Assembly: GCA_965277805.1 (NCBI GenBank)
Contig: OZ255842.1
Location: 2,080,001 to 2,144,000 of the forward strand
Reading direction: 5' to 3'
Length of the DNA stretch: 64,000 nt
DNA from: Candidatus Lustribacter sp.
GTDB taxonomy: Bacteria; Vulcanimicrobiota; Vulcanimicrobiia; Vulcanimicrobiales; Vulcanimicrobiaceae
Within the stretch, counting starts at the first letter, position 1, and each line of letters opens with the position of its first letter. Under the pieces are notes generated by a model. That model was not told the origin of the DNA. It saw only the letters and a program-made list of their open reading frames with translations, and ran no database searches. Shown here one piece after another: positions 12,198 through 27,458 of this stretch. Position numbers and translations under genes: made by a program.

Positions 12198-12567
12198 CTA
12201 CGTCTTTGGTACGAGCGTAAAGTCGAACGGCATCGTAAGGAACGGCAAGGGCATGGAGAAGCGCTGAGCATCGATTTCCGTCGCCTCAATGTATGGCGCG
12301 ATCAGACCCTCTCGGACGCCGAACCCGGCATCTTTGCCGAGGAGCGGATCGCCCGCCGGGTAAATCGCGGATACGACCGTCTCGTAACCGTCTGCCCGGA
12401 GCATGGCGTGAATATGCGCCGGTCGCCCGGCCTTACGTCCCATCGCCCGAAGCATCTCACCGACGGTTTCTGTCGCTTGGCGCGTTTTCAACCGTCGCCA
12501 GCACGAGCCTCAGGGCGCTCTCTTCATTGAAATCGACGATGCCGGCGCTCGTTGTGGAAGCACTCAT
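12198..12567 (-). pseudogene. Internally deleted intradiol (hydroxyquinol/catechol 1,2-) dioxygenase
   Basis: ATG 12567 gives an N-terminal piece (MSASTTSAGIVDFNEESALRLVLATVENAP) joined out of frame to a C-terminal piece (VGEMLRAMGRKAGRPAHIH...GDPLLGKDAGFGVREGLI...FDFTL). Confidence 0.8.
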
Positions 12568-12570
12568 TTT

Positions 12571-13590
12571 TTATCCCTTAGAAGCTTCTGCGTACACGCG
12601 TAAGTAGTCGAGCACGACCTCTTTCGTGCGCGTGCGCGCGATACCGCACTCGGTGGAGATGCCGAAGCGTCCGACGTACTGCCGGGCGGCTTGCATGCGA
12701 GCCTTCGTGCCAGAAATGCCGTCGCTCGCGTGAACGAGCCCGAGAAACAATTCGGTCTCGGCCGGTAGGGCGAGATCGCGGAGCGGCGCAAAATAGGCAT
12801 CGTCCGTGCGGCCAGCCGGAACGGGCATGTGGATGTAGCTGATCGGGCGTGGCACCGCGCGCAGCAACAGCCCGGCCATCGACGCGAGCCGTTCGGTATC
12901 GCGCGGTTCGATGAAATGCTTGCCTTTATGATCGCCGTAGCACAAATGAAAGCCGAGACCAACGTCAGTTGGAACCGCCCCGCCGAGTCTTCCGAATGCT
13001 GCCGTTAGGCGATCTTCCAAATCGGGCGTCGCCGGCATGCGTGCCCAACCGCCGTCCCACATCAGCATCTCCATGCACACATCCCACTGAATCAACAGAT
13101 CCTCGTGCGGAATGGCCGCGCAGATCGTCTCGACTTCGCGTAGCATTGCGCGTTCGTATGCCGGCAAGATCACCGGCACCGCTTCACGCGCACAGTAGAC
13201 GACGACCACCGCCGTGGGCGTCGGCAGCGACACTTGAAAGCGGATCGACGGCGCTATGAGGCCTGCCGAGCGGGCTTTGAGAAAATCGACGTACGAGGTG
13301 CGCGCTTCGCGCGCGTACCCGAGTTCACCGAACCGGACGTCTTCGGGCGCGACATCCGGCGCAAGCGAAACGGCAGGGAACGCGCTTACCTGTTCGACCG
13401 GCGCGTCGTTCCTCAAGTACGGGTTTGAGGCGAGAACGGGATATTGCCAGAGGATCCAATGCCGCCGGCCACCCGGTTCGCCGTCCGGGATACTGCGCAA
13501 GTTCGAGCCGAGCATCGAGCCGATCGTCGCGAAGACGTCGTCGACCGTATCCAAGCCCACGCTGCCGACGAAGTGCACCGGATACGCCAT
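12571..13590 (-). CDS. URO-D/cobalamin-independent methionine synthase-fold protein
   Basis: HFVGSV, IPDGEPGGR, RFQVSLPTP, IQWDVC, GFHLCYGD, STECG; ATG 13590 with GGAG RBS. Confidence 0.7.
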   Translation of the reverse strand: MAYPVHFVGSVGLDTVDDVFATIGSMLGSNLRSIPDGEPGGRRHWILWQYPVLASNPYLRNDAPVEQVSAFPAVSLAPDVAPEDVRFGELGYAREARTSYVDFLKARSAGLIAPSIRFQVSLPTPTAVVVVYCAREAVPVILPAYERAMLREVETICAAIPHEDLLIQWDVCMEMLMWDGGWARMPATPDLEDRLTAAFGRLGGAVPTDVGLGFHLCYGDHKGKHFIEPRDTERLASMAGLLLRAVPRPISYIHMPVPAGRTDDAYFAPLRDLALPAETELFLGLVHASDGISGTKARMQAARQYVGRFGISTECGIARTRTKEVVLDYLRVYAEASKG

Positions 13591-13600
13591 GTTGTACTCC

Positions 13601-14809
13601 TTAATCCGTGCCGGTAATCGGCAGCAGGCCTTCGGGTCGAACGAACGACCGCAGCGGACGCCCTTCCGCCAGGGCCTTGAGCTCCGTGCTCCACAGCTTA
13701 CGCATCGCGATGATAGCGACGTCGGAACGTCCGAGGTGCTCGACGCCTTTGCGCCGGTCAGCGATGCGCCCCTGACCGGTTTGACAGACGTCGTCTTGCG
13801 CCATCGCAACATGGTGACAGAGCTGCGCCATGTCGTCGTAGCCGATGTCGCCGCGCAACACGGCCTGAGCTGCGACATGCGCCTCTTCCTCCGCGTTCGC
13901 AAACTGTTTCCAGCGCTCGGCGTATGCCGGATCGACCGTATCGCCATGAAGATGAACATTAATGAGACGCAATTCGAGGGTGCTTTCGTCGTCGATCGGC
14001 ACGCGATAGGCTAGGAAATCTTGCCAGGCAACCTCCGCCCGGTTCACTTTCTCCTCACCAGGCTTTTGAATATTGTCGGGATGGACAGTGAAGAGGCCGA
14101 TATTCGGCATGCCGAAAAGCACCTCGCGTTTGTGGCCATGGCGCGTGGCGATGCATTTCATGCCCCACGGGGTTTCCTCGGCCGCGATCTCGGGCAGCTG
14201 ATCGAAGTAGACTTTGGTGAACACCGATGTCCGGTGCGTGAACGCGAGATGGCCCTCGTCCATGAAGTTTTCCACGCACTGAAAGAAATTGCAAGCGCGC
14301 ACGCTCATGAGCGGCATGACGAGCTTTCCCCGCTCCCATTCGGGATACCGCGGAAACTCGGGCGGGTCGCCGCCGCCGAAGTACGCATAGATCAAACCGA
14401 GGTAATCGCGCGCGGGATAGCCGCCGATCTTGACGCGCTGCGCGTAGGTGCTGTCGGGCCCCTCGAGCGGCTGCTCGACGCATTGACCGTTCGCTTCGAA
14501 TTTCCAGCCATGGTACGGACATCGAATGCAGTCGCCTTCCACCCAGCCGGCGTTGAGTTGCGTTCCACGATGCGCGCAGGCTTGGTCGACACAGTGAATG
14601 TCGCCCGACTCGCCGCGGTAGAGCGCGTAGTTCTCACCCATGATGCGCAACGGACGCGCGCGCCCGGGCGCTACGCTCTCACTCAAAGCCACCGGATGCC
14701 AGAACGTGCGCATGTAGCGTCCCGCGATCGTACCGGGGCCGGTGTGGGCGAAATCGACGCCCTCGCCGGCGTCATTTACGGAGGCAGTTCCGGAGAGAGT
14801 GGTCGTCAT
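13601..14809 (-). CDS. Rieske non-heme iron oxygenase alpha subunit (phthalate 4,5-dioxygenase/LigXa-like), module 1
   Basis: CAHRG...CPYHG Rieske ligands; ENFMDEGHLAFTH iron site; TGPGTIAGRYMRTFWHPV. Confidence 0.92.
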   Translation of the reverse strand: MTTTLSGTASVNDAGEGVDFAHTGPGTIAGRYMRTFWHPVALSESVAPGRARPLRIMGENYALYRGESGDIHCVDQACAHRGTQLNAGWVEGDCIRCPYHGWKFEANGQCVEQPLEGPDSTYAQRVKIGGYPARDYLGLIYAYFGGGDPPEFPRYPEWERGKLVMPLMSVRACNFFQCVENFMDEGHLAFTHRTSVFTKVYFDQLPEIAAEETPWGMKCIATRHGHKREVLFGMPNIGLFTVHPDNIQKPGEEKVNRAEVAWQDFLAYRVPIDDESTLELRLINVHLHGDTVDPAYAERWKQFANAEEEAHVAAQAVLRGDIGYDDMAQLCHHVAMAQDDVCQTGQGRIADRRKGVEHLGRSDVAIIAMRKLWSTELKALAEGRPLRSFVRPEGLLPITGTD

Positions 14810-15810
14810 GAATACTCCTTACTTCGCGATTGAGCCAACGCGGCGCGTGCGATCTCTTCGTCTTCTTCGGCCGAGCGCGCTCCGGCGATCCCGAGCGCTC
14901 CCGCGACGCAACCAATTGCGTCAATGGTCGGCAGACCACCGGCAACGGCTAGAAAGGGAAAGCGAGCGAGACGCCCATACCCGGCTGCGTCCGCCGTCCA
15001 TGGACCTTCCGCGCCGCTGGGCGCTTGCAGGTTCACCGCTGTTGCCGCTTTGGCTTCTGCCAGATCCACCGTGATCGGCGCGGCGGAATCCATCCGGTCG
15101 AGCTGCACCAGATCGCCGTTACGGTCCGCGACCGCAGCACTGATGCGAACGCCTCGGCGCTGCGCTTCCGAAAACGCGGCGTCGACGACGGCCAGTGCCC
15201 AGGTCAGACGCTGCTGCTCGCGCGCCGGCGGCGGAGCGCTCAGACCCGTTCCGGAAGGCAGTGGATCGTACCGATTACCGTACGCCTTGCGCCAGCGCTC
15301 GAGATCGTCGCCGTGCTGTGGCGCATAATGATCCAGGCCGATCGCGTAGGAGATGATGAGGTCGATTGCATTCGCGGGCCGGCCTTCGACCAGAAACTTC
15401 TCCGGATCGACGCCGGGGGAACTGACCTCGGGCGGGATATCCGCTGCGGACGACATCGCTCCCACGTGCGCACCGTTGCGCGTGATCGGCATCGCGCCCG
15501 GTCCGGGGAAGCAGCGGTCGCGCAAGATGTCTTGATAGGCGGCGAAAACGCTCGGCGGCCGGCCGTAGATCCGTGCGGCGAAGCGGGCCGATGTTTCGCG
15601 GTTGGCCGCCGCCTCGTACGCCTTCGCGCGCGAGATGCCCATGCTGATCGATCCGGCGCCATCCATCCGCGACGCCGAAATGACGATGCCGCCCTCGTTG
15701 ACCACGACGAATGCGCCGCGCTGTCCGACGTCCTCGGCCTTGTCGACGGCACGCCGGAGCAGTTCACGCGCGTCGGCGAGCGAGAGCAGTGGAGCTTCGA
15801 ACCCCGTCAT
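14806..15810 (-). CDS. Tandem GlcG/HbpS-domain protein, module 1
   Basis: Two repeats of VV-D/N-xxG...RMDxA...AKA...GG/GA-LP; ATG 15810 coupled to the upstream stop. Confidence 0.8.
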   Translation of the reverse strand: MTGFEAPLLSLADARELLRRAVDKAEDVGQRGAFVVVNEGGIVISASRMDGAGSISMGISRAKAYEAAANRETSARFAARIYGRPPSVFAAYQDILRDRCFPGPGAMPITRNGAHVGAMSSAADIPPEVSSPGVDPEKFLVEGRPANAIDLIISYAIGLDHYAPQHGDDLERWRKAYGNRYDPLPSGTGLSAPPPAREQQRLTWALAVVDAAFSEAQRRGVRISAAVADRNGDLVQLDRMDSAAPITVDLAEAKAATAVNLQAPSGAEGPWTADAAGYGRLARFPFLAVAGGLPTIDAIGCVAGALGIAGARSAEEDEEIARAALAQSRSKEYS

Positions 15811-16412
15811 ACAAACGAACACGAGTCTTGGAATTCCAACCGAGGTAGCCGTCCGAACAACATATCCGGGTTACCGAATCCGACCGAACACAAGAAGTTC
15901 GAGCGATACGACGTGCCGGCCAAGAATGCTCGGTCGACGGCCTCGTGGTCGAATCCCGAGAGCGGCCCGCAATCGAGCCCCAGCGCACGCGCAGCGACGA
16001 TGAAATATGCACCCTGCAGGGTGGAATTGCGAAATGCCGTCGCTTCCGCGTACCCAGTGTCGTCCGCGTAATGGCCGCGCATGTCTTTGTGTGGAAAGAG
16101 CCGCGGCAGATGGTCGAAGAATCGCTCGTCGTAGGCGACGATCGCCGTTACAGGGGCGGACAGCACTTTCGGCTTGTTACCGGGGCTGACAGCCTCGGCC
16201 AGTTGCGCCTTCGCTTGAGCACTGCGCACAAAGATGAAGCGCGCCGGCTGCGAGTTCGTACTCGTGGGTCCGAGCTGGGCCAACCCGATCACCGCTCGGA
16301 GCAGCGCCTCGTCGACCTCCTTCGGCAACCAGCCGTTGTGGCTGCGCGCGGCCCGGAAGATCAAATCGAGACCCTGGTCGTCCAGGGCCCGACGATCGCA
16401 TTCGATATCCAT
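15807..16412 (-). CDS. rutE: Nitroreductase family, RutE-like malonic semialdehyde reductase
   Basis: ARSHNGW, GPTSTNSQPARFIFV, TAFRNSTLQGAY, GLDCGPLSGFD, SNFLCSVG, RLPRLEF. Confidence 0.8.
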   Translation of the reverse strand: MDIECDRRALDDQGLDLIFRAARSHNGWLPKEVDEALLRAVIGLAQLGPTSTNSQPARFIFVRSAQAKAQLAEAVSPGNKPKVLSAPVTAIVAYDERFFDHLPRLFPHKDMRGHYADDTGYAEATAFRNSTLQGAYFIVAARALGLDCGPLSGFDHEAVDRAFLAGTSYRSNFLCSVGFGNPDMLFGRLPRLEFQDSCSFV

Positions 16413-16435
16413 TAGCGCCTTCGCAGGTTCCTTTG

Positions 16436-16475
16436 TTTGAAGAATTTGTCTTTCAAGAATGTGTGTTTGAAGGTA
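16436..16475. promoter_or_regulatory. Candidate MarR operator in the divergent promoter
   Basis: TTTGAAGAAT/TTTCAAGAAT/TTTGAAGGTA at 15-bp spacing, forming TTGAA-N10-TTCAA and TTCAA-N10-TTGAA inverted repeats. Confidence 0.5.
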
Positions 16476-16525
16476 CTATGCATCTCGCGAGCCGAAACGT
16501 CAACCCTTCTCTAGGGGGTTATGCA

Positions 16526-17110
16526 GTGAAACCGCGGGACCACATCGACCTTGTGCGTAGGGCGGCGGGCATGCCGTCGTCCGACACGACGACGGTCGAA
16601 ATTACCAGCCGCCTTTTCCGGTTGTGCGCGCACTACGATCAACTCGTGTCGCCGCTCTACGCACGCCGCGGGCTGACGCGCGTCGAGCTGGATCTGCTTT
16701 GGGCGCTCGAACGCGCAGGCGATACGCCGCTGACGCCGACCAAGCTGGCGGCGCGGCAAATGTGCGCCTCGGGCACCCTCAGCAATCGCCTCGAAAAATT
16801 GGAGCGGCTGGGCCTGCTCACGCGTCAGGCGGATCCATCCGACCGGCGCGGCGTCCTGCTTGAGATCACCGAGCACGGCCGCACGATCGTCAACGAACTC
16901 AACGCGGCGCGCGAACGTATCGATGCACTTCTAATCCCCGGCCTGACCGTCGCGCAACGGCGCGCATTGGTGGACCTGCTGCGGACATCGCTCATTGCGG
17001 CCGAACAGATCGCGCAGCTGGAAACGGCGAGCGAGACGCCACCGTCCTCCGATGAAGAATCATCTGCACCGCAGCCAGCGCCGCTGCGCCGGACGCGTGC
17101 GGCCCGCTAA
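16526..17110 (+). CDS. MarR family regulator
   Basis: LTPTKLA, SGTLSNRLEKLERLGLLTRQADPSDRRGVLLEITEHG; GTG 16526 after AGGGGG. Confidence 0.9.
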   Translation: MKPRDHIDLVRRAAGMPSSDTTTVEITSRLFRLCAHYDQLVSPLYARRGLTRVELDLLWALERAGDTPLTPTKLAARQMCASGTLSNRLEKLERLGLLTRQADPSDRRGVLLEITEHGRTIVNELNAARERIDALLIPGLTVAQRRALVDLLRTSLIAAEQIAQLETASETPPSSDEESSAPQPAPLRRTRAAR

Positions 17111-17143
17111 CATTTCTGCAAACCGCTGTAAGGAAAGGCCCTG

Positions 17144-17527
17144 ATGCAGGTTACCAAAGACGATGTCATGCAAGCCAGCAAAGGCATGCTACAGAAGCAA
17201 TTCTACGTCGTGTTCAGTACGCCGACGAATGGGATTGGTCCCGTGATGGAAAACCTCGAGGCACACCTCGCGCACCAATGCAAGATCGAGGCGGACGGAA
17301 TCATGGTGGCGGCCGGCCCGTACTGGACCGATGACGAGAAGCAATGGGAAGGCGAGGGCATGTTCGTCATTCGTGCGCGATCCCTCGCGCATGCGAAGGA
17401 ACTTGCGGCGAGCGACCCGATGCACAAATGCGGAGCGCGGTCGTTCGTCGTCCGGCCATGGATGGTGAATGAAGGCGGCCTCACTATCCGGCTCACGTTC
17501 TCGGACGGGAAATTCGTTCTTGAGTAA
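17144..17527 (+). CDS. YciI family protein, module 1
   Basis: HLAHQ, AAGP, GMFVIRA, SDPMHKCGARSF; AAGGAAAGG RBS. Confidence 0.85.
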   Translation: MQVTKDDVMQASKGMLQKQFYVVFSTPTNGIGPVMENLEAHLAHQCKIEADGIMVAAGPYWTDDEKQWEGEGMFVIRARSLAHAKELAASDPMHKCGARSFVVRPWMVNEGGLTIRLTFSDGKFVLE

Positions 17528-17573
17528 CGACGTTCCTGAACGGTCTTCTCGCAGCGCCTCGGAGTTCTACTGA

Positions 17574-18764
17574 ATGCCGTCACTAGCGAAGCTCTCGGAG
17601 TCCACTCGCAACTCCGTTTTGACCCTGCCGGTCGACCTCCACGAGTCGAGCCCGTTCACGCGGCCCAAGAAGCCACTCAGCCAATCGCGGGTCGCGATCG
17701 TCACGACGGCCGGATTACACCGCCGCGACGACCGGCCGTTTACCGGCGGGGATCCGACCTTCCGAGCCATACCCTCAGGAACGCCGGCGTCAGAGATCGT
17801 GCAAAGCCACACCAGCATCGGGTTCGACCGGACCGCCGTGCTCGAGGACATCAACGTCGTTTTTCCGATCGAGCGGTTGCGCGAGATGCTTTCGGCGGGT
17901 CGCATCGGGGAGTTGGCGCCGACCTTCTATTCGTTCATGGGCGCGCAGCGTGACTGGTCACCGATCAGGGAGCGAACGGGACCCGAAGTTGCGAACCTGT
18001 TGGTCGGCGATGGTGTCGACGTCGTCTTACTTACACCAACTTGACCACTTTGCACGAACACGGTCAGTGTTCTCTCACGGGTCTTGGAAGAAAACGGGCT
18101 CACGACGGTCGCTTTGAGTCTGATCCGCGAACACACGGAAAAAGTGAAGCCTCCGCGCGCCGTGTACGTTCCCTTTCCGTTGGGTCTGCCGGTCGGTCAT
18201 CCCGGAAACGTTTCCGAACAGGAGGCCGTCTTGGACTTGGCATTTTCCACTCTCGATGCCGCCAGCGGCCCCGTGCTGCTCGACTATCGCGATGACTCGG
18301 CAGCCGAGGAGGCCGGCTCGCCGCTTCAGGCCTCCGACGTCGATGCGGACGAGCAGGCTCGGACGGCTGACTTCGCTACGGAAGTGACGTTGATGCGGCG
18401 CTATTGGGAGCAGCACGTCGCGGCGACCGGCCGCACCGGCGTCGGCTTATCGAACGTCCCGCCGCAGCGGTTCCGCGGCGTCGTGCGGTTTCTCGAAGCT
18501 CTTCTCACCGATCAAACGGCCGACTCGGACGAACGGCCGGCGGAGGTGCCGAGACCGCTGTTCATCCGGACGTGCCTCGAGGACCTACGCGTGATGTACA
18601 GTGAAGCGCGCTTGCAAACGCATCCACATGAGTCAAGTCAAGACCGGCAACGTTGGTTGCTCGGCTCGACCGCGCTCGGGCTCATGCTGCGCAGCCTGCG
18701 CGATACCTTCGACGCCTCGACCGATCCGCAGTTCAAAGCGCTCGCCTTCGGTATCGCGCGCTGA
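17574..18764 (+). CDS. GrdB/PrdB-like selenoprotein (396 aa, Sec157 in a UPLC motif, C-terminal extension)
   Basis: ORFs 17574..18044 and 18084..18764 are in one frame separated only by TGA 18042-18044; read-through gives VVLLTPT-U-PLCTNTVSVLSRVLEENGLTT, aligning with LVLLLPF-C-PACHRATGLVARALEARGLPT in the paralogue at 26580; RVAIVTTAG, GDPTFR, DINVVFPIERL, KPPR, PFPLG motifs. Confidence 0.85.
18056..18072 (+). promoter_or_regulatory. Candidate bacterial SECIS element
   Basis: GAACAC-GGTCA-GTGTTC: perfect 6-bp stem, 5-nt loop starting GG, beginning 11 nt after the in-frame UGA. Confidence 0.75.
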
Positions 18765-18768
18765 TTCG

Positions 18769-19152
18769 ATGGAAGAACAGGAGCGGTTCTCATCCTTACA
18801 CACATGGGCACGGCGCGCGGGAGACGTCGTGACGGTCGGTATCAGCGCCTACGCCGAACATCAATTGGGTGAGCTGCAATACGTCGGTCTACCGCGCGTC
18901 GGCTCTGCCGTTGTGAAAGACCAGTGCTTCGGTGAGGCTGAATCGACGAAGACCGTTTCCGACCTCTACGCTCCGTGCAGCGGCACCGTCGTTGCGGTCA
19001 ACTCCGAACTCATTGCCGATCCTGCGCTGGTCAATCGCGATCCGTATGGCGCGGGGTGGATAATACTGGTTGAGCCGTCGCAGCCCGGGGAATTCCACGA
19101 ATTGCTCGACCAGCCGGCGTACGACGCGTTCGTCGCCACGCAGGAGCATTGA
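18769..19152 (+). CDS. gcvH: Glycine cleavage H-type lipoyl carrier protein (standalone)
   Basis: VGISAYAEHQLG, AESTKTVSDLYAP (lipoyl Lys), VNRDPYGAGW. Confidence 0.9.
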   Translation: MEEQERFSSLHTWARRAGDVVTVGISAYAEHQLGELQYVGLPRVGSAVVKDQCFGEAESTKTVSDLYAPCSGTVVAVNSELIADPALVNRDPYGAGWIILVEPSQPGEFHELLDQPAYDAFVATQEH

Positions 19153-19197
19153 GGCATCCAAGCTATGCTTTCAACCTAAGATGATAAGCGAGGGGGC

Positions 19198-19501
19198 TTG
19201 TACCACGTGCTAAGATCCACATTCGTCTCTTCCAGTCTGAGCCTAACGGCAGCGGCGGAATTGCCGCTGCCGGTAGGCGCCCAATCTGTCGCGTTCGCTC
19301 CAGATGCCACCCGAAGCCGTCGGGCAGAGGTGGTTACGACAATGAACCTTGCGCGCCCGGGCGTTTCGCAGGCGTGGATCCCCTTGCCGTCAGTGAGCGC
19401 CCTAGCCGTTCTTGATGTATCCTCAAGCCGTGAACGCGGGCATCGCCTGCGACTGCCTCGATCCAAAGGCTGTCGCTTATTCGATCACGGTAACGGCCTA
19501 G
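19198..19501 (+). pseudogene. Remnant of a transglutaminase-like exported protein (both ends only)
   Basis: AQSVAFAP...EVVTTMNL...SQAWIPLPSV, then in another frame PFLMYPQAVNAG...DCLDPKAVAYSIT* (19406-19501); family recognised from memory. Confidence 0.5.
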
Positions 19502-19544
19502 TTTCTCTCTTCGAAGGCGACGCGACGTTCCCGAGGTACTCAAC

Positions 19545-20516
19545 ATGTCCGCTGCAATCCATTCGCTCGATCACTTTAGCTTCGCCGTCCCTGACGTAGC
19601 CGCCGCGGCTGCGTTCTACGAACGCTTCGGCCTCGATGTCCGCTCGGAAGGTACGGGTTTCACGCTGCGCGCGAGCGGCAGCGATCACGTTTGGGGTCGC
19701 ATTTACGAAGGCCCGCGAAAAGCCATCGGTTACCTCTCGTTCGGCGCGTACGAGCACGATATGCCGCAACTGCGCAAGCAAGTCGCCGGATGCGGAGTGG
19801 CGTTACTGCCGGCTCCGAAACGTGCCGTCGACGATGGCGGGGTGTGGTTCGAGGATCCGGACGGGACACTAATAGAGATTCGCGTCGGTCCGAAGGTCTC
19901 GCCTGACGTAAAAGCTGCGCTGAGCGCGACGTTTGCCCCGCCCGATGTCGCTGGTGCGCCCATGCGCTCCGACGCCAAGACGGTGCGGCCCGACCGTCTT
20001 TCGCACGTGCTCGTGTTCACGAGCGATGTCTCGCGCGCGATCGACTTTTATCGCGAGACCGTTGGCATGCAGCTCTCCGATCGGGCTCGGGACGGCATCG
20101 GGTTCATGCACGGCGCACACGGCAGCGACCATCACCTCGTCGCATTCGCGAAATCTGACGCTCGCGGATTTCATCATTGCAGTTGGAACGTAGCTTCGGT
20201 GAGCGATGTCGGCCTAGGTGCGATGCAAATGGCCGATGCGGGATACACTCGCGGGTGGGGAATGGGGCGGCACGTACTCGGGTCAAACTATTTTGACTAC
20301 ATCCGCGACCCGTGGGGAAGCTACTCCGAATATTCCTACGATATCGATTTCGTCACTCCGGGAGCGGTTGCGAAAGGCACGTGGAAAGCGACCGACGCAT
20401 CGCCCGAAAATGGCTTCTACTTGTGGGGGCCGTTGCCACCTGACGATTTCGCCTTTAATTACGAGTCGCCGTCGGCCGAATTACAACGGGACCTCGTCGC
20501 AAGCGAACCGCGGTAA
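19545..20516 (+). CDS. Two-domain VOC protein, extradiol dioxygenase-like
   Basis: HSLDHF, RLSHVL, SDHHLVAF, HHCSW, GMGRHVLGSNYFDYIRDPWGSYSEY. Confidence 0.9.
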   Translation: MSAAIHSLDHFSFAVPDVAAAAAFYERFGLDVRSEGTGFTLRASGSDHVWGRIYEGPRKAIGYLSFGAYEHDMPQLRKQVAGCGVALLPAPKRAVDDGGVWFEDPDGTLIEIRVGPKVSPDVKAALSATFAPPDVAGAPMRSDAKTVRPDRLSHVLVFTSDVSRAIDFYRETVGMQLSDRARDGIGFMHGAHGSDHHLVAFAKSDARGFHHCSWNVASVSDVGLGAMQMADAGYTRGWGMGRHVLGSNYFDYIRDPWGSYSEYSYDIDFVTPGAVAKGTWKATDASPENGFYLWGPLPPDDFAFNYESPSAELQRDLVASEPR

Positions 20517-20734
20517 GCGTGCGTCAAAAATGTAACGATGCGGCGATTTAGCGGTGCCAGCAGAACAATGAGCGGAATCATCGCTAACCAGGCAAAGAGC
20601 CATGCGCGGACCCATAGCAAGAACGTTGACTGCAAATGCAATAAGAGTCCTGTTGCGATCGCGGCTGTGACCGCTGTTGTTGCGCCGGACTGAATGGTTC
20701 CAAAAAGTAAATCAGCGTAACGCTTGTTGATCAT
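20459..20734 (-). CDS. Small membrane protein, DUF2798-like
   Basis: FGTIQSG, WVRAWLFAWLAMIPLIVLLAP, two hydrophobic segments. Confidence 0.6.
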   Translation of the reverse strand: MINKRYADLLFGTIQSGATTAVTAAIATGLLLHLQSTFLLWVRAWLFAWLAMIPLIVLLAPLNRRIVTFLTHAYRGSLATRSRCNSADGDS

Positions 20735-20790
20735 GCGCTCGTTCCAAGTCGCCAGCTGGCGTAAATTTTGTCTGCCCAATCGTACTGGCC

Positions 20791-21738
20791 TCAACCCGGA
20801 AAAATGAGCTCGGACGCTGGGAAGGCCGGAAATTTTTGGTACTTGGCGGCTAGATCGATCGACGGTTGAAGCTGCCCGGTCGCGAGCTTTTCGGCGAATG
20901 TCGCGCGGTGGACGTGGGCGACGAATTCCGGATCTTGCTTGAGCTTGCTGGCCACGATTGGTACGACTTTATCGGGATTTGCCTTCGCCCAGGCGGCCGA
21001 TTCGACCATGACGCGCGCAAATCGCGCGACGAGATCGGTATGCGCCTTCGCCCAGGTAGCTGTCGCGCACCATGCCGTTACTAGGTAGGGCGGTGCGAGA
21101 ACTTCGTCTCCTGACGTGAGCAACTTCGCTTGCCCCTTCTGGATTGCGATCGTGAAGAATGGCTCATTGAGCCACCCCGCATCGGCGCGTCCCGCAGCAA
21201 GGGTATCACCAATTGCGGGAAACGGGACCTCGAGAAACTTGATCGTGGCCGAATCACCGCCATTCTTGTCCATCCAAGCTCGCGGTATGAACTCGGCTAG
21301 CGATCCGAGTCCCGGAATCGCGATCGTCTTGCCCTGGAGGTCTCCTGGGCCCTTGATCGCCGAGTTCGGTGGCACGACGATCCCGCCCTGAACGAGGCCC
21401 TTTTCGACATCTCCTTGCGGCCCGACGATCACGAACGGCAGTCCCTTGGCATGGGCCAGTGCAAGATTCGTGATCGTCGCGTTCCCGATGTCGAACGTTC
21501 CAGCGAGTATCGCCGGCAAGATAGCCGCTCCGGTTGATAGCTGACCTATCTCCGCGCTGATCCCGGCCTTCGCAAAAAAGCCGTTCGCCTCGGCGTAATA
21601 CGGCTGGCACCCGGGCTCGATCGGGACAACTGCGACCTTCACCAACGGAAGGTCGACGGCGCGAGCGACGCCCCTGACACTTGGAAGAGCGAACGCTCCG
21701 GCTATAGCTTGTGCGGCTCGGTGGCGGGTGATGTTCAC
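20791..21738 (-). CDS. ABC substrate-binding protein, NitT/TauT (SsuA-like)
   Basis: YYAEANGFFAKAG, DLQGKTIA, EVPFP, GRADAG, EPF. Confidence 0.85.
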   Translation of the reverse strand: MNITRHRAAQAIAGAFALPSVRGVARAVDLPLVKVAVVPIEPGCQPYYAEANGFFAKAGISAEIGQLSTGAAILPAILAGTFDIGNATITNLALAHAKGLPFVIVGPQGDVEKGLVQGGIVVPPNSAIKGPGDLQGKTIAIPGLGSLAEFIPRAWMDKNGGDSATIKFLEVPFPAIGDTLAAGRADAGWLNEPFFTIAIQKGQAKLLTSGDEVLAPPYLVTAWCATATWAKAHTDLVARFARVMVESAAWAKANPDKVVPIVASKLKQDPEFVAHVHRATFAEKLATGQLQPSIDLAAKYQKFPAFPASELIFPG

Positions 21739-22634
21739 GGTGTGAATGCGCTCGGAAAGATATGAAGCATGACGATTTTCCGAGCGGCTTCAGAACTTCT
21801 TTGGTAGCACGTCTGCAGCGTTACTTTCATGCCGTCACCTTTGGCGTTGCAACATGAGGCTTGGCTAAGATAATTGCCCGGACCGTTCACTGTTGGAGAA
21901 AGTACCATCCGCGCGTTTGTAGCATAGGAATCTCGACAATATGAAGTGGAGTGGAAGTCCTAGTAGTCCCACTACCCCTCGCATAAGCCAGCTTGATCGC
22001 GCAACGTCAGCACGATGCGTTGAGCGCTCGGGCTCACATTCAGTCGGATGGGATGATCGTCGAGTGGGTGGCGACGGCTGCGCAGGTGACCGACGGACGG
22101 CGGCCGTTGCGGTCGCGTCGCGCGGACGTGCGCGCGAAGGGATGCAGGACGGCCTGTGCTTAAAGCGCGCTCGAAGGTCGAACTATTCCAGCTCGCGCAG
22201 TGTTGCCACGAACGCTTGAGCCGCTTGCAGAGTCATACCATGAAGCATCAGAATGACGACATTCAGTTCATCGTCTTGCACCGAAGACGCATGTGCGATG
22301 TTCTCTGAGCCGCCCATAATGTTGCCAAGAGCCCGCCCAAATGCAGAGCTCCAACCATTGTTGATTGCGGTTTGGCGGACTAGCCGCTTATACCATTTAA
22401 GCATGGAGGCCGCGCAGGACCAGTCCGAACAGTCGCTGCGTTTTAACTTGAGTCAAGATTTACGCCTTTGCGCGATGTTGCGCGACTACTTCGCTTGGGA
22501 ACGAATCGAACCTCGGTCTGCCTCACCAACACGGTGAGGTTTCGCCTCGGGCCGTGGCGCTAAATTCAAGAACAGCGTGACTACTCCGGATCCACGCTCA
22601 TCACGGGCAATGCGGTCCGAAATGGCGCGATGCC

Positions 22635-23492
22635 CTAATCGCCTTCTGACACTTCCCCGCGACGATCGCGAAGCCGCACTAGTCGCTGAAGCGCGCTGCT
22701 GCTTTCCTCATCAACGGGCGTCTGCAGGAACACCATGACCCCCGGAAGTGCGGGCGGCTCCAGCGTCATGGACCTCACCGCGATCGGTCCGGCGGCCGTT
22801 TCGAAAGTGATCGGCGTCGCCGGACCACGGCCCACGATCTTTTCCGACCACGCGCGCGTGAAGTCGGGTGAATCGGCGAGCGCGTCTAGCAGCTCGTCGA
22901 TACGCGCATCCGCACCGTGACGCGCGTACAATGAGCGAAAGATGGCCACCGGACCGAGCGACATCTCGTCCCAGCTCCGCACGATATGGCGGAGCGCCGG
23001 ATCCTTGAACATGCGCCAGATGTGATTGTTGGCTTTCCAATCGGTTGCGTCGCTGAACTCGTAGAGGGCCGCCGTGCGCCGATTCCAGGCAAGGTGATCC
23101 ATGCGGGCGTTGACCGCGAACGCGCTGCCGGTGAACGCGTGCAGCATCGCCTGGACATCGGCCGGAACCGCGGTGACCAGCTCGCCCCACGGCACGATCT
23201 GCCGTTCGGCCAGGCCGAAGACATAGCCCGACTCTTCCGGCGAAAGGCGCAGCACGCGAGAAATCCGCGTAAGGACTTCGGACGAGGGGCGTACTGGGCG
23301 CCCTTGCTCGAGCCAGGTGTACCAAACGACGCCAATGTGCGCCAGGCTGGCCACCTCCTCGCGACGCAAGCCACGCGCGATCCGGCGCGCACCTCGCTCT
23401 AAGCCGGCAGCCTCTGGCGCGATCGCCTGGCGCCGCGAGCGCAAGAACATGCCGAGCTCTTTGCGACGTGCGGCCGGGTCATCAGAATTCAT
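22635..23492 (-). CDS. XRE-HTH regulator with MmyB-like ligand-binding domain
   Basis: ELGMFLRSRR, GLRREEVASLAHIGVVWYTWLEQGR, LAWN. Confidence 0.9.
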   Translation of the reverse strand: MNSDDPAARRKELGMFLRSRRQAIAPEAAGLERGARRIARGLRREEVASLAHIGVVWYTWLEQGRPVRPSSEVLTRISRVLRLSPEESGYVFGLAERQIVPWGELVTAVPADVQAMLHAFTGSAFAVNARMDHLAWNRRTAALYEFSDATDWKANNHIWRMFKDPALRHIVRSWDEMSLGPVAIFRSLYARHGADARIDELLDALADSPDFTRAWSEKIVGRGPATPITFETAAGPIAVRSMTLEPPALPGVMVFLQTPVDEESSSALQRLVRLRDRRGEVSEGD

Positions 23493-23506
23493 GACAGCTC
23501 TTTGAG

Positions 23507-23529
23507 GAGTACTCGCAGTACTAGTACTG
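23507..23529. promoter_or_regulatory. Candidate operator of the MmyB-like regulator
   Basis: Three AGTACT palindromic hexamers clustered (GAGTACTC-G-CAGTACT-AGTACTG) between divergent starts. Confidence 0.4.
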
Positions 23530-23599
23530 TTTCTTGCCTTTGTGGCGGCCGCACTCCTGTGCTACAAAGCCTCGGACGGTACTTGCGGGGGATGCGCTC

Positions 23600-24607
23600 A
23601 TGACTGATTCCGGCACATTTTCGCTTGCCAAAGCCCGCGCATTGCTTTCGCGCGCCGTAGCAAAATGCGAGGCCTTTGGGCAATCCGGCACCTTCGTCGT
23701 CGTCGACGCCTCGGGCGCTCCGGTGAGCGTGGCGCGTATGGACGGCTGCGCCCCCTCGGCGCTGCCGCTGGTTCGTGCGAAGGCGTTCGCCACCGCCGCG
23801 AACGGCGAGCCGAGCGCGCTCTTCGCCGCACGCATGGAGAAGTTCGGTCCCCACACGTTTGCGAGCTATCAGGCCGTTCTGCGCGACCAGCCGTTTCCGG
23901 GCGCCGGCGGTGTACCGGTGCGGGAGAACGGGAGGATCGTCGGAGCGATTGCGACCGGCCTGCGCATCGGGCCGTTCGTCAAGTTGCCCGGCATCTCGCC
24001 GTCGCAACTGATCGCCGACGGCAAGCCGGGCAATCTCGAGGATACGATCATCAGCTACGCGCTCGGCGTACCGTACAATCCGCAGCACGGCGATGACGCT
24101 GCGCGCTGGACCGAAGCCTATGGCGCGCCGCCGGACCCGGCGGAAAAAGGAACGGCCATGGACCCGGTTCCGGAAGCGAGCGCGCAACCCGAACTCGCGC
24201 GCGCGCGCGCAATTGCCGATCGCGTGATCGCGCGCGCCACGGAAAAGGGCGCGCGCGTGGCCGTTGCGGTTGTCGATGCGGCCGGCGATGCCGTCACGCT
24301 CGATCGCATGGACGGCGCGCCGCCGATGGGGGTCGACGTCGCCGCAGCCACCGCGACCGCCGCCGTCAATTTTGGCATGGCGTCGGGGGCGATCGCAGCC
24401 GACCGCCACTATTCGAGCGTTCTCGACAGCGTGCTCACAACCGTCCCATACCGGATGCTGACGTTGCCCGGCGGATGTCCGATTCGCAGCGGAACGGCGG
24501 TGCTCGCTGCCATCGGTGTGTATTGTCATGATCTCGACCTCGCCGCCGAGCTTGCGCAGAGTGCGGCGGATTGGGTCTTACCGCAATTCGAAGGAAGTGG
24601 TCAATGA
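23600..24607 (+). CDS. Tandem GlcG/HbpS-domain protein, module 2
   Basis: VVVDASG...RMDG...AKA, then VVDAAG...RMDGA; shares IISYAxG...YxPQHGDD linker with the 14806 gene. Confidence 0.8.
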   Translation: MTDSGTFSLAKARALLSRAVAKCEAFGQSGTFVVVDASGAPVSVARMDGCAPSALPLVRAKAFATAANGEPSALFAARMEKFGPHTFASYQAVLRDQPFPGAGGVPVRENGRIVGAIATGLRIGPFVKLPGISPSQLIADGKPGNLEDTIISYALGVPYNPQHGDDAARWTEAYGAPPDPAEKGTAMDPVPEASAQPELARARAIADRVIARATEKGARVAVAVVDAAGDAVTLDRMDGAPPMGVDVAAATATAAVNFGMASGAIAADRHYSSVLDSVLTTVPYRMLTLPGGCPIRSGTAVLAAIGVYCHDLDLAAELAQSAADWVLPQFEGSGQ

Positions 24608-25809
24608 TAGAACAGGATCGCATCGACATCGACATCGCTCCGCTCACCGATCCTGGCACGGTCGACTATGTCCACACCGGCCCCGGCACCTTGGCCGGCA
24701 CCTACTTACGGCGCTTTTGGCACCCCGTCTATTGCAGCCGTAACCTCGAGCCCGGCTTCGCTAAGCCGCTGACGATCATGAGCCAGAAATTGGCGCTGTA
24801 CCGCAGCCAGGAAGGCCAGGTCCACTGCGTCGACAACCGCTGTGCGCATCGCGGCGCGATGCTCAGCACGGGCTGGGTCGAGGGCGACGTCATCCGCTGC
24901 CCCTATCATGGCTGGGCGTACGGGGCCGATGGCAGGTGCGTGGAGCAGCCGATGGAACGAGCGACATTCGCCAAGCATATTCGCATCGGCGGCTACCCGA
25001 CGCAAGAATATCTCGGCTTCATCTGGCTCTATCTCGGCAACGGCGAACCGCCCCCGTTTATACGCTATCCCGAATGGGAGAATGCGCCCTTCGTTTCCGC
25101 TCAGATCGACACGCGGCCATGCAATTGGTTTCAGAACATCGAGAACTATCAAGACGAAGCTCACGTTTGGTTCACGCACAAGCGCTCCGCGCTCGAAGGC
25201 CTCGATCTGAACCATCTGCCGCAGCTCTCGTGTGAGAAAACGCCCTGGGGCTTGCGTATGATCGCAAAGAAACAGGACGGCAACGACCGCATCGTGCAGT
25301 TCGGTATGCCCAACATCTGCATGTTCGCCGTGCATCCGGACAACATTAAACGCCAGGGCGAAGAACGCAACGCCGACGAGACAGCGTGGCAGATGTTCCT
25401 CGACTACCGGGTGCCGGTGGACGATTTCTCGCATCTGCAAGTGCACTGTATCGCGACGTTCATGAACGGGACGCCCAGCGAAGAGTACAAGAAGCGCTGG
25501 AAAGACTTCGCGAACGCCGAAGCCGAGGCCCACGAGGTCGCGCAGAAAGTGCTGCGCGGCGAACTCCAGTACGATAGGATCGCCGAAATATGCCACCACG
25601 TGCCACTTGCGCAAGACGAAGTTGTGCAAGTGGGCCAGGGCGTCATTGCGGATCGCCGGCGCGGCATCGAAAATCTGGGCTCGACGGACGTCGGCGTCGT
25701 CGCGATCCGGCGACTGTATACGCAGGAGCTCACGGCGCTGGCCGAAGGCCGGCCGCTCGGGAATTTCGAGCGGCCGGAGGGACTGTTGCCCAAAGGCGGC
25801 GGCGACTAA
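24604..25809 (+). CDS. Rieske non-heme iron oxygenase alpha subunit, module 2
   Basis: CAHRG...CPYHG; ENYQDEAHVWFTH; paralogue of 13601 (VHPDNI, FANAExEAH, CHHV..AQD). Confidence 0.92.
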   Translation: MIEQDRIDIDIAPLTDPGTVDYVHTGPGTLAGTYLRRFWHPVYCSRNLEPGFAKPLTIMSQKLALYRSQEGQVHCVDNRCAHRGAMLSTGWVEGDVIRCPYHGWAYGADGRCVEQPMERATFAKHIRIGGYPTQEYLGFIWLYLGNGEPPPFIRYPEWENAPFVSAQIDTRPCNWFQNIENYQDEAHVWFTHKRSALEGLDLNHLPQLSCEKTPWGLRMIAKKQDGNDRIVQFGMPNICMFAVHPDNIKRQGEERNADETAWQMFLDYRVPVDDFSHLQVHCIATFMNGTPSEEYKKRWKDFANAEAEAHEVAQKVLRGELQYDRIAEICHHVPLAQDEVVQVGQGVIADRRRGIENLGSTDVGVVAIRRLYTQELTALAEGRPLGNFERPEGLLPKGGGD

Positions 25810-26192
25810 TGCCGGTTTCCAAAGAGGACATCCTTGAAGCCGGTAAAGGCATGCTGCAAAAGCAGTATTACGTCGTCTTCAGCACGCCGACGAACGGTAT
25901 CGGTCCCGTGATGGAAAATCTCGAGGCGCACCTCGCGCATCAATGTAAGATCGAGGCCGACGGCATTATGGTGGCGGCCGGACCGCACTGGACGGATGAC
26001 GAGACGCAGTGGGAGGGCGACGGGATGTTCGTCATCCGCGCACGGGACCTCGTGCACGCAAAGGAGCTTGCGGCGAGCGATCCGATGCACAAATGCGGAG
26101 CGCGGTCGTTCAAAGTCCGCCCGTGGCTGGTGTGCGAAGGCGGCTTTACCATACGGATCACGTTTTCGGACGGCAAATTCGCACTCGAGTAA
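25809..26192 (+). CDS. YciI family protein, module 2
   Basis: 127 aa, 108/127 identical to 17144..17527 by manual count; TAATG coupling. Confidence 0.88.
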   Translation: MPVSKEDILEAGKGMLQKQYYVVFSTPTNGIGPVMENLEAHLAHQCKIEADGIMVAAGPHWTDDETQWEGDGMFVIRARDLVHAKELAASDPMHKCGARSFKVRPWLVCEGGFTIRITFSDGKFALE

Positions 26193-26223
26193 CGTCGCGC
26201 TCATCGGCGGAAAGTGAAGGCTC

Positions 26224-26577
26224 ATGCTCTACCTCAGAATGTGTTTTGACAGTCCCGGTAAGGAACAGCTCCGCGATGCCACGCGGTCGGAGCACCGCGC
26301 CTACCTCGTCCCATTTCTGGCCCCCGGCGGGGACGTCCACATCGTTCAGGCCGGTCCCATGTGCGGCAGCGATGAGAGCGATCAGAACGTGGGCAGCTTT
26401 TTCGTCGTCGAAGCCACGTCGATAAAGGCGGTCGAGGCCTTTCACGCCGGCGATCCGTTCACGCAAAAAGGCGTGTTCGGAAACGCGACGGTCGTGCGGT
26501 GGGATCGGCACATCGACAGTAGCAGCGAATCGCACGCGACGTTCGCCGCACAAAACGCCCGGCCGGCTGTCGGATAA
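26224..26577 (+). CDS. YciI family protein (divergent)
   Basis: RSEHRAYL, QAGP, GSFFVVEA, GDPF. Confidence 0.85.
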   Translation: MLYLRMCFDSPGKEQLRDATRSEHRAYLVPFLAPGGDVHIVQAGPMCGSDESDQNVGSFFVVEATSIKAVEAFHAGDPFTQKGVFGNATVVRWDRHIDSSSESHATFAAQNARPAVG

Positions 26578-26579
26578 CG

Positions 26580-27458
26580 ATGCCGTACAGCTTCTCCCGC
26601 TTTCTGGCCGAACTGGGGCGATCGATTCCGATGCCCGAATTCGATCCGCCCACGCTCGTGCCGTTGCGCAAGCCCATCGCCGAGTCGACAATCGGGATGT
26701 TCGTCAGCTGCGGCGCGCAACTGCCCGAAGACCCGCCGCTGCTCGAGACGGAAGACATCACGTTCCGGTTGTTGCCACGCGACGTCCCGACCGATCGACT
26801 AGTCATTTCGCATCAAACGCTGGTACGGAAGTGGGCGGTAGAAGACCTGAACGTCGCATACCCGATCGACCGCATGAAGGAGCTGGAACGTGAGGGAACG
26901 TTCAAGCGGCTCGCGCACACAAACGTCTCAATGGTCGGTTCGATCGAGCGCTATACCGAATTGATGGAACAGACAGTGCCGCGGATGAAGGCCGTCTTTG
27001 ACTCGCAAGGTGTCGACCTCGTCTTGTTGCTGCCGTTCTGCCCCGCATGTCATCGGGCGACGGGCCTCGTCGCTCGGGCGTTGGAGGCCCGCGGGCTGCC
27101 GACCATTAGCACGAGCGTGCTGTGGGAAATGAGCGCTGCCGTCAAGCCGCCGCGCACGTGCTTCCTAGATTTTCCGCTAGGTTGCCCGGCCGGCAAGCCG
27201 CACGAAGTAGCGCAGCAGCGCGACATTCTCCGTCAAACGCTGCAACTCGCACCGGAGTTCGACGCCGACAGCTGGGCGATGAAGTCGCTGCCGTTTCAAT
27301 GGGATGCCGACGGAAGTCGCGACTGGGAGCGCGCGACAGAAGACCTCTACCGAAACGGTGGAATCAAGATTACCGATCGGCACATGGCGGCGCACGCAAA
27401 CGTCGGCGAGTCGTTACTTGGCAACGAGCGCGCCTTCGCAGTCAAATGTAACTGTTAA
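26580..27458 (+). CDS. GrdB/PrdB-like protein, cysteine form (CPAC), ending in CNC
   Basis: DLNVAYPIDRMKEL, GVDLVLLLPFCPACH, LEARGLPT, VKPPR, FPLGCPAGKP. Confidence 0.85.
   Translation: MPYSFSRFLAELGRSIPMPEFDPPTLVPLRKPIAESTIGMFVSCGAQLPEDPPLLETEDITFRLLPRDVPTDRLVISHQTLVRKWAVEDLNVAYPIDRMKELEREGTFKRLAHTNVSMVGSIERYTELMEQTVPRMKAVFDSQGVDLVLLLPFCPACHRATGLVARALEARGLPTISTSVLWEMSAAVKPPRTCFLDFPLGCPAGKPHEVAQQRDILRQTLQLAPEFDADSWAMKSLPFQWDADGSRDWERATEDLYRNGGIKITDRHMAAHANVGESLLGNERAFAVKCNC

Follow-up and report, generated by a model that had tools for sequence, protein, structure and literature searches.

What would bring a selenoprotein of the proline reductase type together with an oxygenase, a fused GlcG protein and YciI-type proteins, and do these families belong together? 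The question is raised by a 64,000-nucleotide stretch of DNA (hereafter the window; positions 2,080,001 to 2,144,000 of the forward strand of contig OZ255842.1, assembly GCA_965277805.1) from Candidatus Lustribacter sp. (Vulcanimicrobiaceae), in which an initial annotation had found, in two places, genes for a tandem-GlcG protein, a Rieske oxygenase, a YciI protein and a GrdB-like protein, and had taken them for a duplicated module of an oxidative pathway with one selenocysteine (Sec) and one cysteine version. We find that the tandem GlcG plus Rieske cassette is the sole unit that recurs beyond this genome. Tentatively, and at somewhat less than an even chance, we read the loci as a lineage-specific, recently amplified family of aromatic-catabolic operons in a Rieske-rich genome; with the same reserve, we propose that the cassette has in this genome acquired YciI-type proteins and PrdB-family proteins with a U-x-x-C or C-x-x-C motif. 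Of the wider interpretation first offered, genuine-looking operons with a plausible redox logic in this genome are what stands, whereas a conserved four-family module and a Sec/Cys backup pair do not.

Three copies of a tightly coupled gene set

Family calls were made from an open reading frame (ORF) listing and from Pfam and NCBIfam profile scans (16 + 47 window ORFs). These bore out both the double occurrence of the families and the layout described for each copy, to which a tblastn search of the window proteins against the genome added a third copy. Copy 1 is a divergon around the gene of a MarR-family regulator (16433-17110, plus strand; PF12802, PF01047; the coordinates are those of the longest ORF and the true start may be later). 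Its minus-strand operon begins with a RutE-like protein of the flavin mononucleotide (FMN) nitroreductase family (15807-16412; NF003768, 272 bits, cut-off 152; PF00881) and continues with the tandem GlcG/HbpS-like gene (14806-15810, ATG at 15810; two PF03928 stretches), a Rieske oxygenase alpha subunit of 402 residues (13601-14809; PF00355, 78.6 bits) and, 7 nucleotides behind it, a last gene for a 340-residue protein that has no Pfam or NCBIfam match (12571-13593). On the plus strand, the regulator is followed by a YciI-type protein 'a' (17144-17527, 127 residues; PF03795, 33 bits), a long PrdB-like selenoprotein (17574-18764) and, 4 nucleotides further on, a paralogue of the lipoyl carrier GcvH with predicted lipoylation (18769-19152; PF01597, 119 bits; NF002270, 134.1 bits, cut-off 117; TIGR00527, 116.4 bits, cut-off 115.85), a second GcvH being encoded elsewhere in the genome.

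Copy 2 is a single plus-strand operon, divergent from the gene of an MmyB-like regulator (22635-23492, minus strand; PF17765, 106 bits), an 86% paralogue of which adjoins copy 3. It comprises a tandem GlcG/HbpS-like gene (23534-24607, again with two PF03928 stretches; longest ORF, true start probably later), a Rieske alpha subunit (24604-25809; PF00355, 82.7 bits), YciI-type 'a' (25809-26192; PF03795, 33.9 bits), a second, TftG-like YciI-type protein, 'b' (26224-26577, 117 residues; PF03795, 51.7 bits), and a short PrdB-like protein with cysteine in place of Sec (26580-27458, 292 residues). The start of this Rieske gene was put at the ATG at 24604 because copy 3 carries a stop upstream of the corresponding methionine. 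Copy 3 lies outside the window (genome positions 2,201,779-2,206,608, ~58 kb past the window end), follows the gene order of copy 2 and is 82% identical to it in DNA sequence over 4.8 kb. Between copies 1 and 2 (pairwise BLASTP), identity amounts to 35% for the PrdB-like proteins, 47% for tandem GlcG, 55% for the Rieske proteins and 85% for YciI 'a'.

The tight spacing claimed for these genes was confirmed by reading the junctions base by base: stop and start codons overlap as ATGA between the RutE-like and GlcG genes of copy 1 and between GlcG and Rieske genes in both copies, Rieske and YciI 'a' of copy 2 share one nucleotide of TAA and ATG (TAATG), and a gap of 2 nucleotides separates YciI 'b' from the short PrdB-like gene.

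The genome is a single 5.53-Mb contig, in which (counting merged tblastn matches that cover at least half of the query) we located 3 tandem-GlcG, 5 PrdB-like and 8 YciI-like loci, along with 92 Rieske alpha-type and 275 NMT1/THI5-type solute-binding-protein genes, the latter two being very large expansions for a genome of this size. All three tandem-GlcG genes adjoin the three mutually closest Rieske paralogues, and each lies less than 2 kb from a PrdB-like gene, a proximity that exceeds chance since only three tandem-GlcG and five PrdB-like genes are present. Two PrdB-like genes lie apart from GlcG loci: one short, at 1.53 Mb, and one long with Sec, at 3.86 Mb. The public sequencing runs listed for this sequence were four of DNA, all from one study, and none of RNA.

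The GlcG-Rieske cassette

The copy-1 Rieske protein contains the CAH...CPYH and D-x2-H-x4-H motifs, with C78, H80, C97, H100, D184, H187 and H192 invariant in the alignment; going by the family motif, we take D184, H187 and H192 to be the mononuclear-iron site. Among solved structures it comes nearest to the alpha subunit of a putative phthalate 4,5-dioxygenase (7fhr, E 5.5e-41), the match being limited to residues 21-192, and the catalytic C-terminal half is without a close relative (weak LigXa_C and VanA_C matches fell below cut-off). PF03928 is found twice per tandem GlcG protein (126.7 and 130.3 bits), and binding of haem or another ligand is predicted. The solved chains nearest to the GlcG domain are the formaldehyde sensor EfgA (6bws, E 4.3e-10), an unnamed GlcG-like protein and HbpS. 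The linker that fuses the two domains carries the invariant residues Y166 and Q169 and the nearly invariant H170 and D173. A complex prediction for the Rieske and tandem GlcG proteins of copy 1 (score 0.02, mark 0.32) gave no verdict either way.

The fused protein is rare. Among 5.8 billion clustered proteins we retrieved 28 homologues (7,999 candidates sharing most words were scored); among 1.84 billion, 75 representatives at E <= 1e-30; of the top 150, 17 cover the profile from end to end. One tandem-GlcG homologue (P0244, 59% identity) and one fragment of a long PrdB-like protein (P0009, 86%) come from the same two sources with a longest contig of 31,099 nucleotides in each case, and may be encoded together. 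In ESM Atlas, a cluster of 353-residue HbpS-like proteins has Actinomycetota as its commonest phylum; no tandem GlcG was found in 401 Actinomycetota genomes at E <= 1e-20, a weak negative given that five candidates per genome were scored and no match arose anywhere, and a tblastn search of a plasmid collection was likewise without match. Tandem GlcG occurs in 2 of 400 sampled other genomes of the phylum, and the full tandem profile is matched in 2 of the 347 further genomes that belong to its taxonomic family.

In both of these genomes a Rieske gene is close by, with neither a YciI nor a PrdB-like gene in the vicinity. In genome G369, genes for a binding protein and an unknown ORF precede those for tandem GlcG (62%) and Rieske (70%), and housekeeping genes follow, the binding protein being a 50% homologue of the NMT1/THI5-type solute-binding protein encoded between copies 1 and 2 (20791-21738, minus strand; PF09084). 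In genome G348, a distance of 1.5 kb separates a split GlcG from a Rieske gene (39%).

Two PrdB-like subfamilies and their Sec codons

The proteins first labelled GrdB-like do represent a family present in both copies, but their best curated match is PrdB (TIGR04483; 146.8 bits for the Sec and 134.4 bits for the Cys protein, cut-off 300); PF07355 is matched at 42.9 and 22.4 bits, respectively (cut-off 22, which the short protein barely passes). With TGA read as Sec, the copy-1 gene yields 396 residues with Sec at residue 157 in T-P-T-U-P-L-C, a segment that aligns with P-F-C-P-A-C of copy 2. AlphaFold models place the U-x-x-C motif after a beta-strand and at a helix start in both proteins; the long one (pLDDT, the predicted local distance difference test, 87) consists of an alpha/beta domain plus an extra C-terminal helical domain (~residues 260-396), and the short one (pLDDT 88) has C-P-A-C at the U-x-x-C site and an invariant C-terminal C-N-C.

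Neither model found a PDB match in Foldseek at E <= 0.001, a PDB sequence search with the Sec protein returned 0 matches at E <= 0.01, and a wide VIA-align search with the short model met generic alpha/beta sandwiches (LacI-type, CheY-like, Rossmann-like) at Z <= 7.8, within the chance range. A whole-genome search for PrdA/GrdE found none, though its control matched in 0 of 14 genomes. The short family is well conserved across metagenome proteins (66-93% identity), with invariant cysteines (C44, C154, C157, C194, C202, C290, C292) and histidines (H78, H158, H268, H272), a set that may form a metal or cluster site beyond C-x-x-C.

In a quick maximum-likelihood tree of 38 rows (11 from this genome and its kin, 16 of 80 long-type and 11 of 80 short-type loci, leaving out 64 and 69), long and short proteins split into two clades with 100% support on each side in the Shimodaira-Hasegawa-like approximate likelihood ratio test (SH-aLRT) and with the longest internal branches. 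The copy-1 protein groups with long proteins of Eremiobacterota/Vulcanimicrobiota records, and the short Cys copies of this genome, three in number, cluster tightly together. Both long copies of this genome have Sec and all three short ones Cys; kin genomes hold short copies with TGA. The depth of the split, together with the presence of Sec and Cys in both clades, rules out that the two proteins are one orthologue in two forms. Thus, what had been described as a Sec and a Cys version of one protein are two deeply separated subfamilies (396 against 292 residues), and the suggested selenium-independent backup fails with it, both clades having Sec and Cys members. The other components being only 47-55% identical between the copies suggests different substrates more than redundancy. 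As the PrdB-like genes stem from two clades, their pairing with these operons arose twice, or one gene replaced the other.

That copy 1 encodes a selenoprotein, as first proposed, is supported, and we regard the in-frame TGA (18042-18044, plus strand) as a credible Sec codon, judging from the U-x-x-C motif, a covarying hairpin and the Sec machinery of the genome (selA, selB, selD and one tRNA-Sec). The candidate selenocysteine insertion sequence (SECIS) is a 6-bp hairpin, GAACAC-GGUCA-GUGUUC (18056-18072), which begins 14 nucleotides after the U of UGA; its loop appears to resemble the GGUC loop of the Escherichia coli fdhF SECIS. Equivalent hairpins, with different but complementary stems, sit at the same position in 13 long-type and 10 short-type homologues (all of which we folded). 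The case for the element rests on this conservation and covariation, for the fold of 18036-18110 alone is no more stable than shuffles (z 0.68); Rfam at gathering score gave 0 matches over the whole window, so that no curated SECIS model backs the hairpin. The codon at the motif site is TGA in 69 of 81 long-type instances (80 genome loci) and in 14 of 80 short-type instances (80 metagenome loci), and a Cys codon in the rest. With both codons in both subfamilies, each is a genuine Sec/Cys family.

Database homologues of the long protein are mostly fragments of ~220-230 residues that hold the post-TGA part only; gene callers routinely truncate this selenoprotein. In five alphaproteobacterial loci (L013, L014, L026, L032, L044) two long PrdB-like genes are adjacent, each with TGA at U-x-x-C; in a further locus (L017) the second match is a contig-end fragment and TGA was seen in the first gene only.

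YciI proteins and a putative aromatic route

A lead to TftG, a YciI protein of chlorohydroxyquinol catabolism, had been drawn from the sequence; it holds for YciI 'b' of copy 2, for which TftG is the closest protein of solved structure (4lbh, E 1e-10, residues 1-95 against 1-93), with the His of '..AHLAYL..' and the segment 'DPFT' aligned. YciI 'a' has no TftG match and is only distantly YCII-like. We take the aligned His and D-P-F-T to be catalytic, and the activity of YciI 'b' is a prediction. In the degradation of 2,4,5-trichlorophenoxyacetic acid (2,4,5-T), TftG is reported to turn chlorohydroxyhydroquinone into hydroxybenzoquinone, followed by a reductase and ring opening (PMC3975901).

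The surroundings of copies 1 and 2 are aromatic-catabolic in content, and the neighbourhood of a YciI 'a' orthologue in genome G145, described below, is in line with such a setting. The window holds a two-domain extradiol dioxygenase-like protein of the vicinal oxygen chelate (VOC) type (19545-20516, plus strand; two stretches of PF00903), which starts 392 nucleotides beyond the copy-1 GcvH gene, together with an FAA hydrolase, an Amidohydro_2 protein, a VanA-type Rieske protein and an intradiol dioxygenase remnant. The TftG-like YciI 'b', the adjoining thiol and selenol proteins and this setting lead us to favour a sequence of hydroxylation, quinone formation, reduction and ring cleavage. Gene content, coupling, paralogy, Sec decoding and distribution are observed, and from them we infer every chemical step and the substrate class.

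In such a route, an aromatic compound would be imported by a transporter that depends on a solute-binding protein, and would be hydroxylated by the Rieske enzyme with a reductase encoded elsewhere, tandem GlcG serving as an accessory protein that may bind a cofactor or a reactive intermediate. YciI proteins would then eliminate a substituent from, or tautomerise, the hydroxylated hydroquinone to give a quinone, which the PrdB-like dithiol or selenol-thiol protein would reduce, unless it acts by removing a substituent; in copy 1 the RutE-like flavoprotein may contribute. Re-reduction of the PrdB-like protein could come from thioredoxin or, in copy 1, from lipoyl-GcvH, and ring cleavage by the extradiol-type dioxygenase would come last. 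Substituent removal by the PrdB-like protein remains a candidate activity in view of the proposal, made for Synergistota, that a GrdB-like protein cleaves a C-F bond reductively (PMC10838667). The papers that came up on GrdB-like or PrdB-like proteins deal with fluoroacetate reduction in Synergistota.

How far the linkage extends

Several observations weigh against such a dedicated pathway. Within this genome, none of the scanned window ORFs matched a ferredoxin or an FNR-type reductase, and the operons give no clue to a substrate; the solitary short PrdB-like gene at 1.53 Mb, which shares 92% identity with those of the operons, has binding-protein genes for neighbours; and with 92 Rieske genes, 16% of random genome points lie no more than 5 kb away from one. 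Beyond it, co-occurrence of the four families, which the initial annotation had itself named as the test of its module, came out negative. We examined 80 loci around long homologues (contigs from one genome per species) and 80 around short homologues (metagenomes). Flanks reached 3 kb or more to either side in 55 long and 21 short loci, and 38 short loci had that much sequence upstream; many loci are kin. Home-built profile hidden Markov models (HMMs), with the window as positive control, found two of GlcG, Rieske and YciI in 0 of these 160 loci, and a single family in six (YciI in 1, GlcG in 1, Rieske in 4). Moreover, none of the six other genomes of the same genus (completeness 72-97%) holds a full tandem GlcG, one of them (G145) having a single-domain match only; neither cassette genome, G369 or G348, has a YciI 'a' match as far as searched; and the short PrdB-like gene of G369 lies on a different contig from its GlcG-Rieske pair.

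Searches by tblastn gave a similar picture: the 16 window proteins against the 80 long loci (E <= 1e-6) matched GlcG in 0, YciI in 0, Rieske in 1 and the RutE-like protein in 3, and against the 80 short loci (E <= 1e-4) two distant Rieske genes, one weak GlcG and seven binding-protein genes were recovered. GcvH, considered as a usual partner of long PrdB-like genes, was discarded (0 of 80 loci, tblastn E <= 1e-6). The neighbours of PrdB-like genes elsewhere, which also count against the pathway, are varied and often housekeeping; those of the long type include DNA ligase, ArgRS, MurJ, GlnD, sulfatase and transporters. In the same-genus genome G145, a YciI 'a' orthologue (83%) sits between an extradiol dioxygenase (65% identical to the 19545-20516 protein) and a SnoaL-like protein, in a cluster that also holds a GntR regulator, an alpha/beta hydrolase, a transporter of the major facilitator superfamily and a Rieske gene, and has no tandem GlcG and no PrdB-like gene.

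Short-type metagenome loci (L102-L172) show recurrent neighbours of their own: Amidohydro_2 follows in 32, a di-haem-type cytochrome c in 24 and a pyrroloquinoline quinone (PQQ) dehydrogenase in 19, which is a different conserved context, probably that of one lineage. A 208-residue ORF of no recognised family precedes the short gene in 20 metagenome loci. A different tandem HbpS-like protein (L126:6-938, 311 residues), the sole such case among the 80 metagenome loci, is encoded 2.4 kb upstream of a short PrdB-like gene, with a divergent phosphodiesterase between them. Since the full combination appears in no other genome searched, we consider that it probably serves a local breakdown pathway and does not represent a new system of wide occurrence.

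The varied, non-pathway company of PrdB-like genes elsewhere is also what would be expected if the co-expressed PrdB-like proteins were generic protective thiol or selenol reductants, countering damage (peroxide, quinone adducts) from uncoupled Rieske turnover, by analogy with stand-alone PrdB-like proteins that may serve peroxiredoxins or glutaredoxins in other organisms. The near-identical short copy that stands alone in this genome fits this explanation, as does the abundance of the family in aerobic communities, with no proline-reductase context in the passages of the two surveys that bear on it (PMC2398784, PMC1088965). It has against it that no peroxiredoxin or glutaredoxin adjoins copy 1 or 2, and that the 2-nucleotide junction with the TftG-like YciI gene, like the position of YciI beside PrdB-like genes of two subfamilies, points to a specific pairing. 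We rate a protective role as unlikely, yet as a serious contender.

Age of the pieces

Linkage may also carry no functional meaning at all. Third-codon-position identity is near saturation between the Rieske genes of copies 1 and 2 (0.43) and between their GlcG genes (0.40); it reaches 0.56-0.65 among the three YciI 'a' genes, on a par with the 0.63-0.69 between copies 2 and 3 for their other genes. The YciI 'a' protein of copy 1 is 85% identical to that of copy 2 and 94% to that of copy 3, and DNA similarity of copy 1 to the two others is confined to the YciI gene (17141-17532, 83-85%), plus weak Rieske similarity. Likewise, the solitary short PrdB-like gene matches the operon copies within the gene only (26581-27457; L090, L091). 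That the blocks of similarity end at gene boundaries suggests single-gene duplication or gene conversion among paralogues. The old paralogy is therefore that of GlcG and Rieske; YciI 'a' and the short PrdB-like gene moved, or were converted, as gene-sized pieces much later. If they moved, YciI was placed beside a PrdB-like gene twice; if gene conversion was at work, the order seen in copy 1 could be an old one. Copies 2 and 3 are, by their sequence, one recent 4.8-kb duplication. The claim that linkage persists despite divergence is weakened accordingly: linkage is seen, but copies 2 and 3 count as one duplication and the copy-1 YciI gene is as close to those of copies 2 and 3 as these are to each other.

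These data bear on the explanation that only GlcG and Rieske form a unit, that the rest came together by gene-sized duplication or conversion in a plastic region, and that the segmental duplication from copy 2 to copy 3 inflated the pattern. The similarity that stops at the ends of YciI 'a' and the short PrdB-like gene, the single duplication behind copies 2 and 3 and the lack of conservation of the arrangement in other genomes all accord with it. So does a sign of rearrangement directly downstream of the copy-1 operon, where a 97-residue ORF (12198-12491, minus strand) matches positions 103-180 of the 182 of intradiol dioxygenase PF00775 (the C-terminal half only) and is probably a truncated remnant. 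However, with 5 PrdB-like genes in 5.53 Mb, we estimate a chance of ~0.5% that one falls within 2 kb of a given site, and there are two independent loci; the overlapping or 2-nucleotide junctions of copy 2 imply selection for co-translation. Meaningless linkage appears rather unlikely.

A far more specific form of the catabolic reading would have tandem GlcG as an obligate new accessory subunit of a distinct Rieske clade and the PrdB-like proteins, an abundant orphan selenoprotein family, as dedicated reductants that work with YciI/TftG enzymes, either on a quinone or in the reductive removal of a ring or alpha substituent, with lipoyl-GcvH as donor in the Sec version; we hold this to be quite improbable.

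The 340-residue protein that ends the copy-1 operon has two paralogues in the genome (45% and 36%), and its nearest ESM Atlas clusters are annotated 'hypothetical protein' (0.98) and 'Methionine synthase family protein' (0.96), which serves as a lead only. An H-L-C-Y-G-D segment is reminiscent of the MetE zinc site, and the protein is possibly MetE-like. It figures in a last alternative, in which the Rieske protein would be an O- or N-demethylase, GlcG would bind formaldehyde as EfgA does, and GcvH, MetE-like and PrdB-like proteins would process the amine or one-carbon product. In its favour, the solved structure closest to the GlcG domain is EfgA, those related to the Rieske protein include NdmA and DdmC, both demethylases, copy 1 has a GcvH paralogue and a possibly MetE-like protein, and GrdB/PrdB proteins cleave C-N bonds next to a carboxylate, as a recent review has it (PMC13188914). 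We nonetheless rate it as the least probable of all, because copies 2 and 3 lack GcvH and the MetE-like gene, no GrdE/PrdA-type pyruvoyl partner occurs among the scanned window ORFs, the likeness to demethylases is limited to the N-terminal half of the Rieske protein, and YciI and the ring-cleavage context better suit an aromatic hydroquinone route.

Elsewhere in the window, two large Vgb-lyase-family beta-propeller proteins (33061-34845 and 38242-39897) are encoded near a sulfatase, a TauD-family dioxygenase and another NMT1 binding protein.

Relation to known systems and significance

PrdB-like selenoproteins have been known from the environment for two decades. Under the name 'proline reductase PrdB', with a U-x-x-C motif, they ranked in the Sargasso Sea with the most abundant families of selenoproteins (42 genes), and Table 3 of the same 2005 paper gives PrdB among thiol-dependent redox motifs, with U-x-x-C as redox-active (PMC1088965); the Global Ocean Sampling (GOS) study of 2008 counted 235 PrdB selenoproteins and 110 Cys homologues (PMC2398784). 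The passages of a 2026 review that treat the PrdB family describe it through clostridial D-proline reductase only (PMC13188914). Our proteins resemble this environmental, stand-alone family (pfam07355) in PF07355, U-x-x-C, the SECIS hairpin, the Cys homologues and their occurrence in aerobes, apparently without proline-reductase genes; they differ in that a long 396-residue and a short 292-residue C-N-C form both stand in Rieske/YciI operons, as in 0 of the 160 other loci. Clostridial PrdB (TIGR04483) is the best curated model, matched over ~200 residues including the Sec/Cys site, but the scores are far below 300, the window scan is devoid of a PrdA/GrdE-type (PF09338) gene and the setting here is aerobic and oxygenase-rich.

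The Burkholderia 2,4,5-T pathway, in which the YCII-family 5-chloro-2-hydroxyhydroquinone dehydrochlorinase TftG acts together with hydroxybenzoquinone reductase and benzenetriol dioxygenase, offers an analogy of arrangement, with YciI 'b' matched to TftG end to end, a candidate reductant directly after it and ring-cleavage dioxygenases nearby; its oxygenase, however, is the flavin monooxygenase TftD and its reductant an NADH quinone reductase, in place of which we find a Rieske protein and a PrdB-like thiol protein. Phthalate-family Rieske oxygenases (phthalate dioxygenase, CarAa, NdmA, DdmC, KshA) share the CxH...CxxH and mononuclear-iron motifs and provide the best solved relatives, although the catalytic half is here without a close relative and is coupled to a tandem DUF336 protein. 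Both halves of the latter match the single-domain GlcG/HbpS/EfgA proteins (PF03928, DUF336), which are here fused as two domains by a conserved linker. In the literature (supplements lay outside the scope) we found no paper that links PrdB-like, GlcG/DUF336 or YciI proteins to a Rieske oxygenase operon and no published pathway of this composition, in keeping with the first impression that the combination had not been described.

What is new is modest: a rare tandem GlcG plus Rieske cassette, and one genome that wires two PrdB-like subfamilies to YciI and Rieske genes. Since the full combination seems to be restricted to a single uncultured genome, the value of the finding is limited, and function may not transfer to the family at large. 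Stand-alone PrdB-like selenoproteins rank with the most abundant of their kind in aerobic communities and, in the passages of the surveys and the review that concern them, are still filed as proline reductase, with no aerobic function shown. The operon context described here offers a concrete activity for them, quinone reduction or substituent removal, and the pairing of tandem GlcG with a Rieske oxygenase could point to an accessory role not so far described for DUF336 proteins. If true, the reductant role of the PrdB-like proteins would be the first biochemical role assigned to that family.

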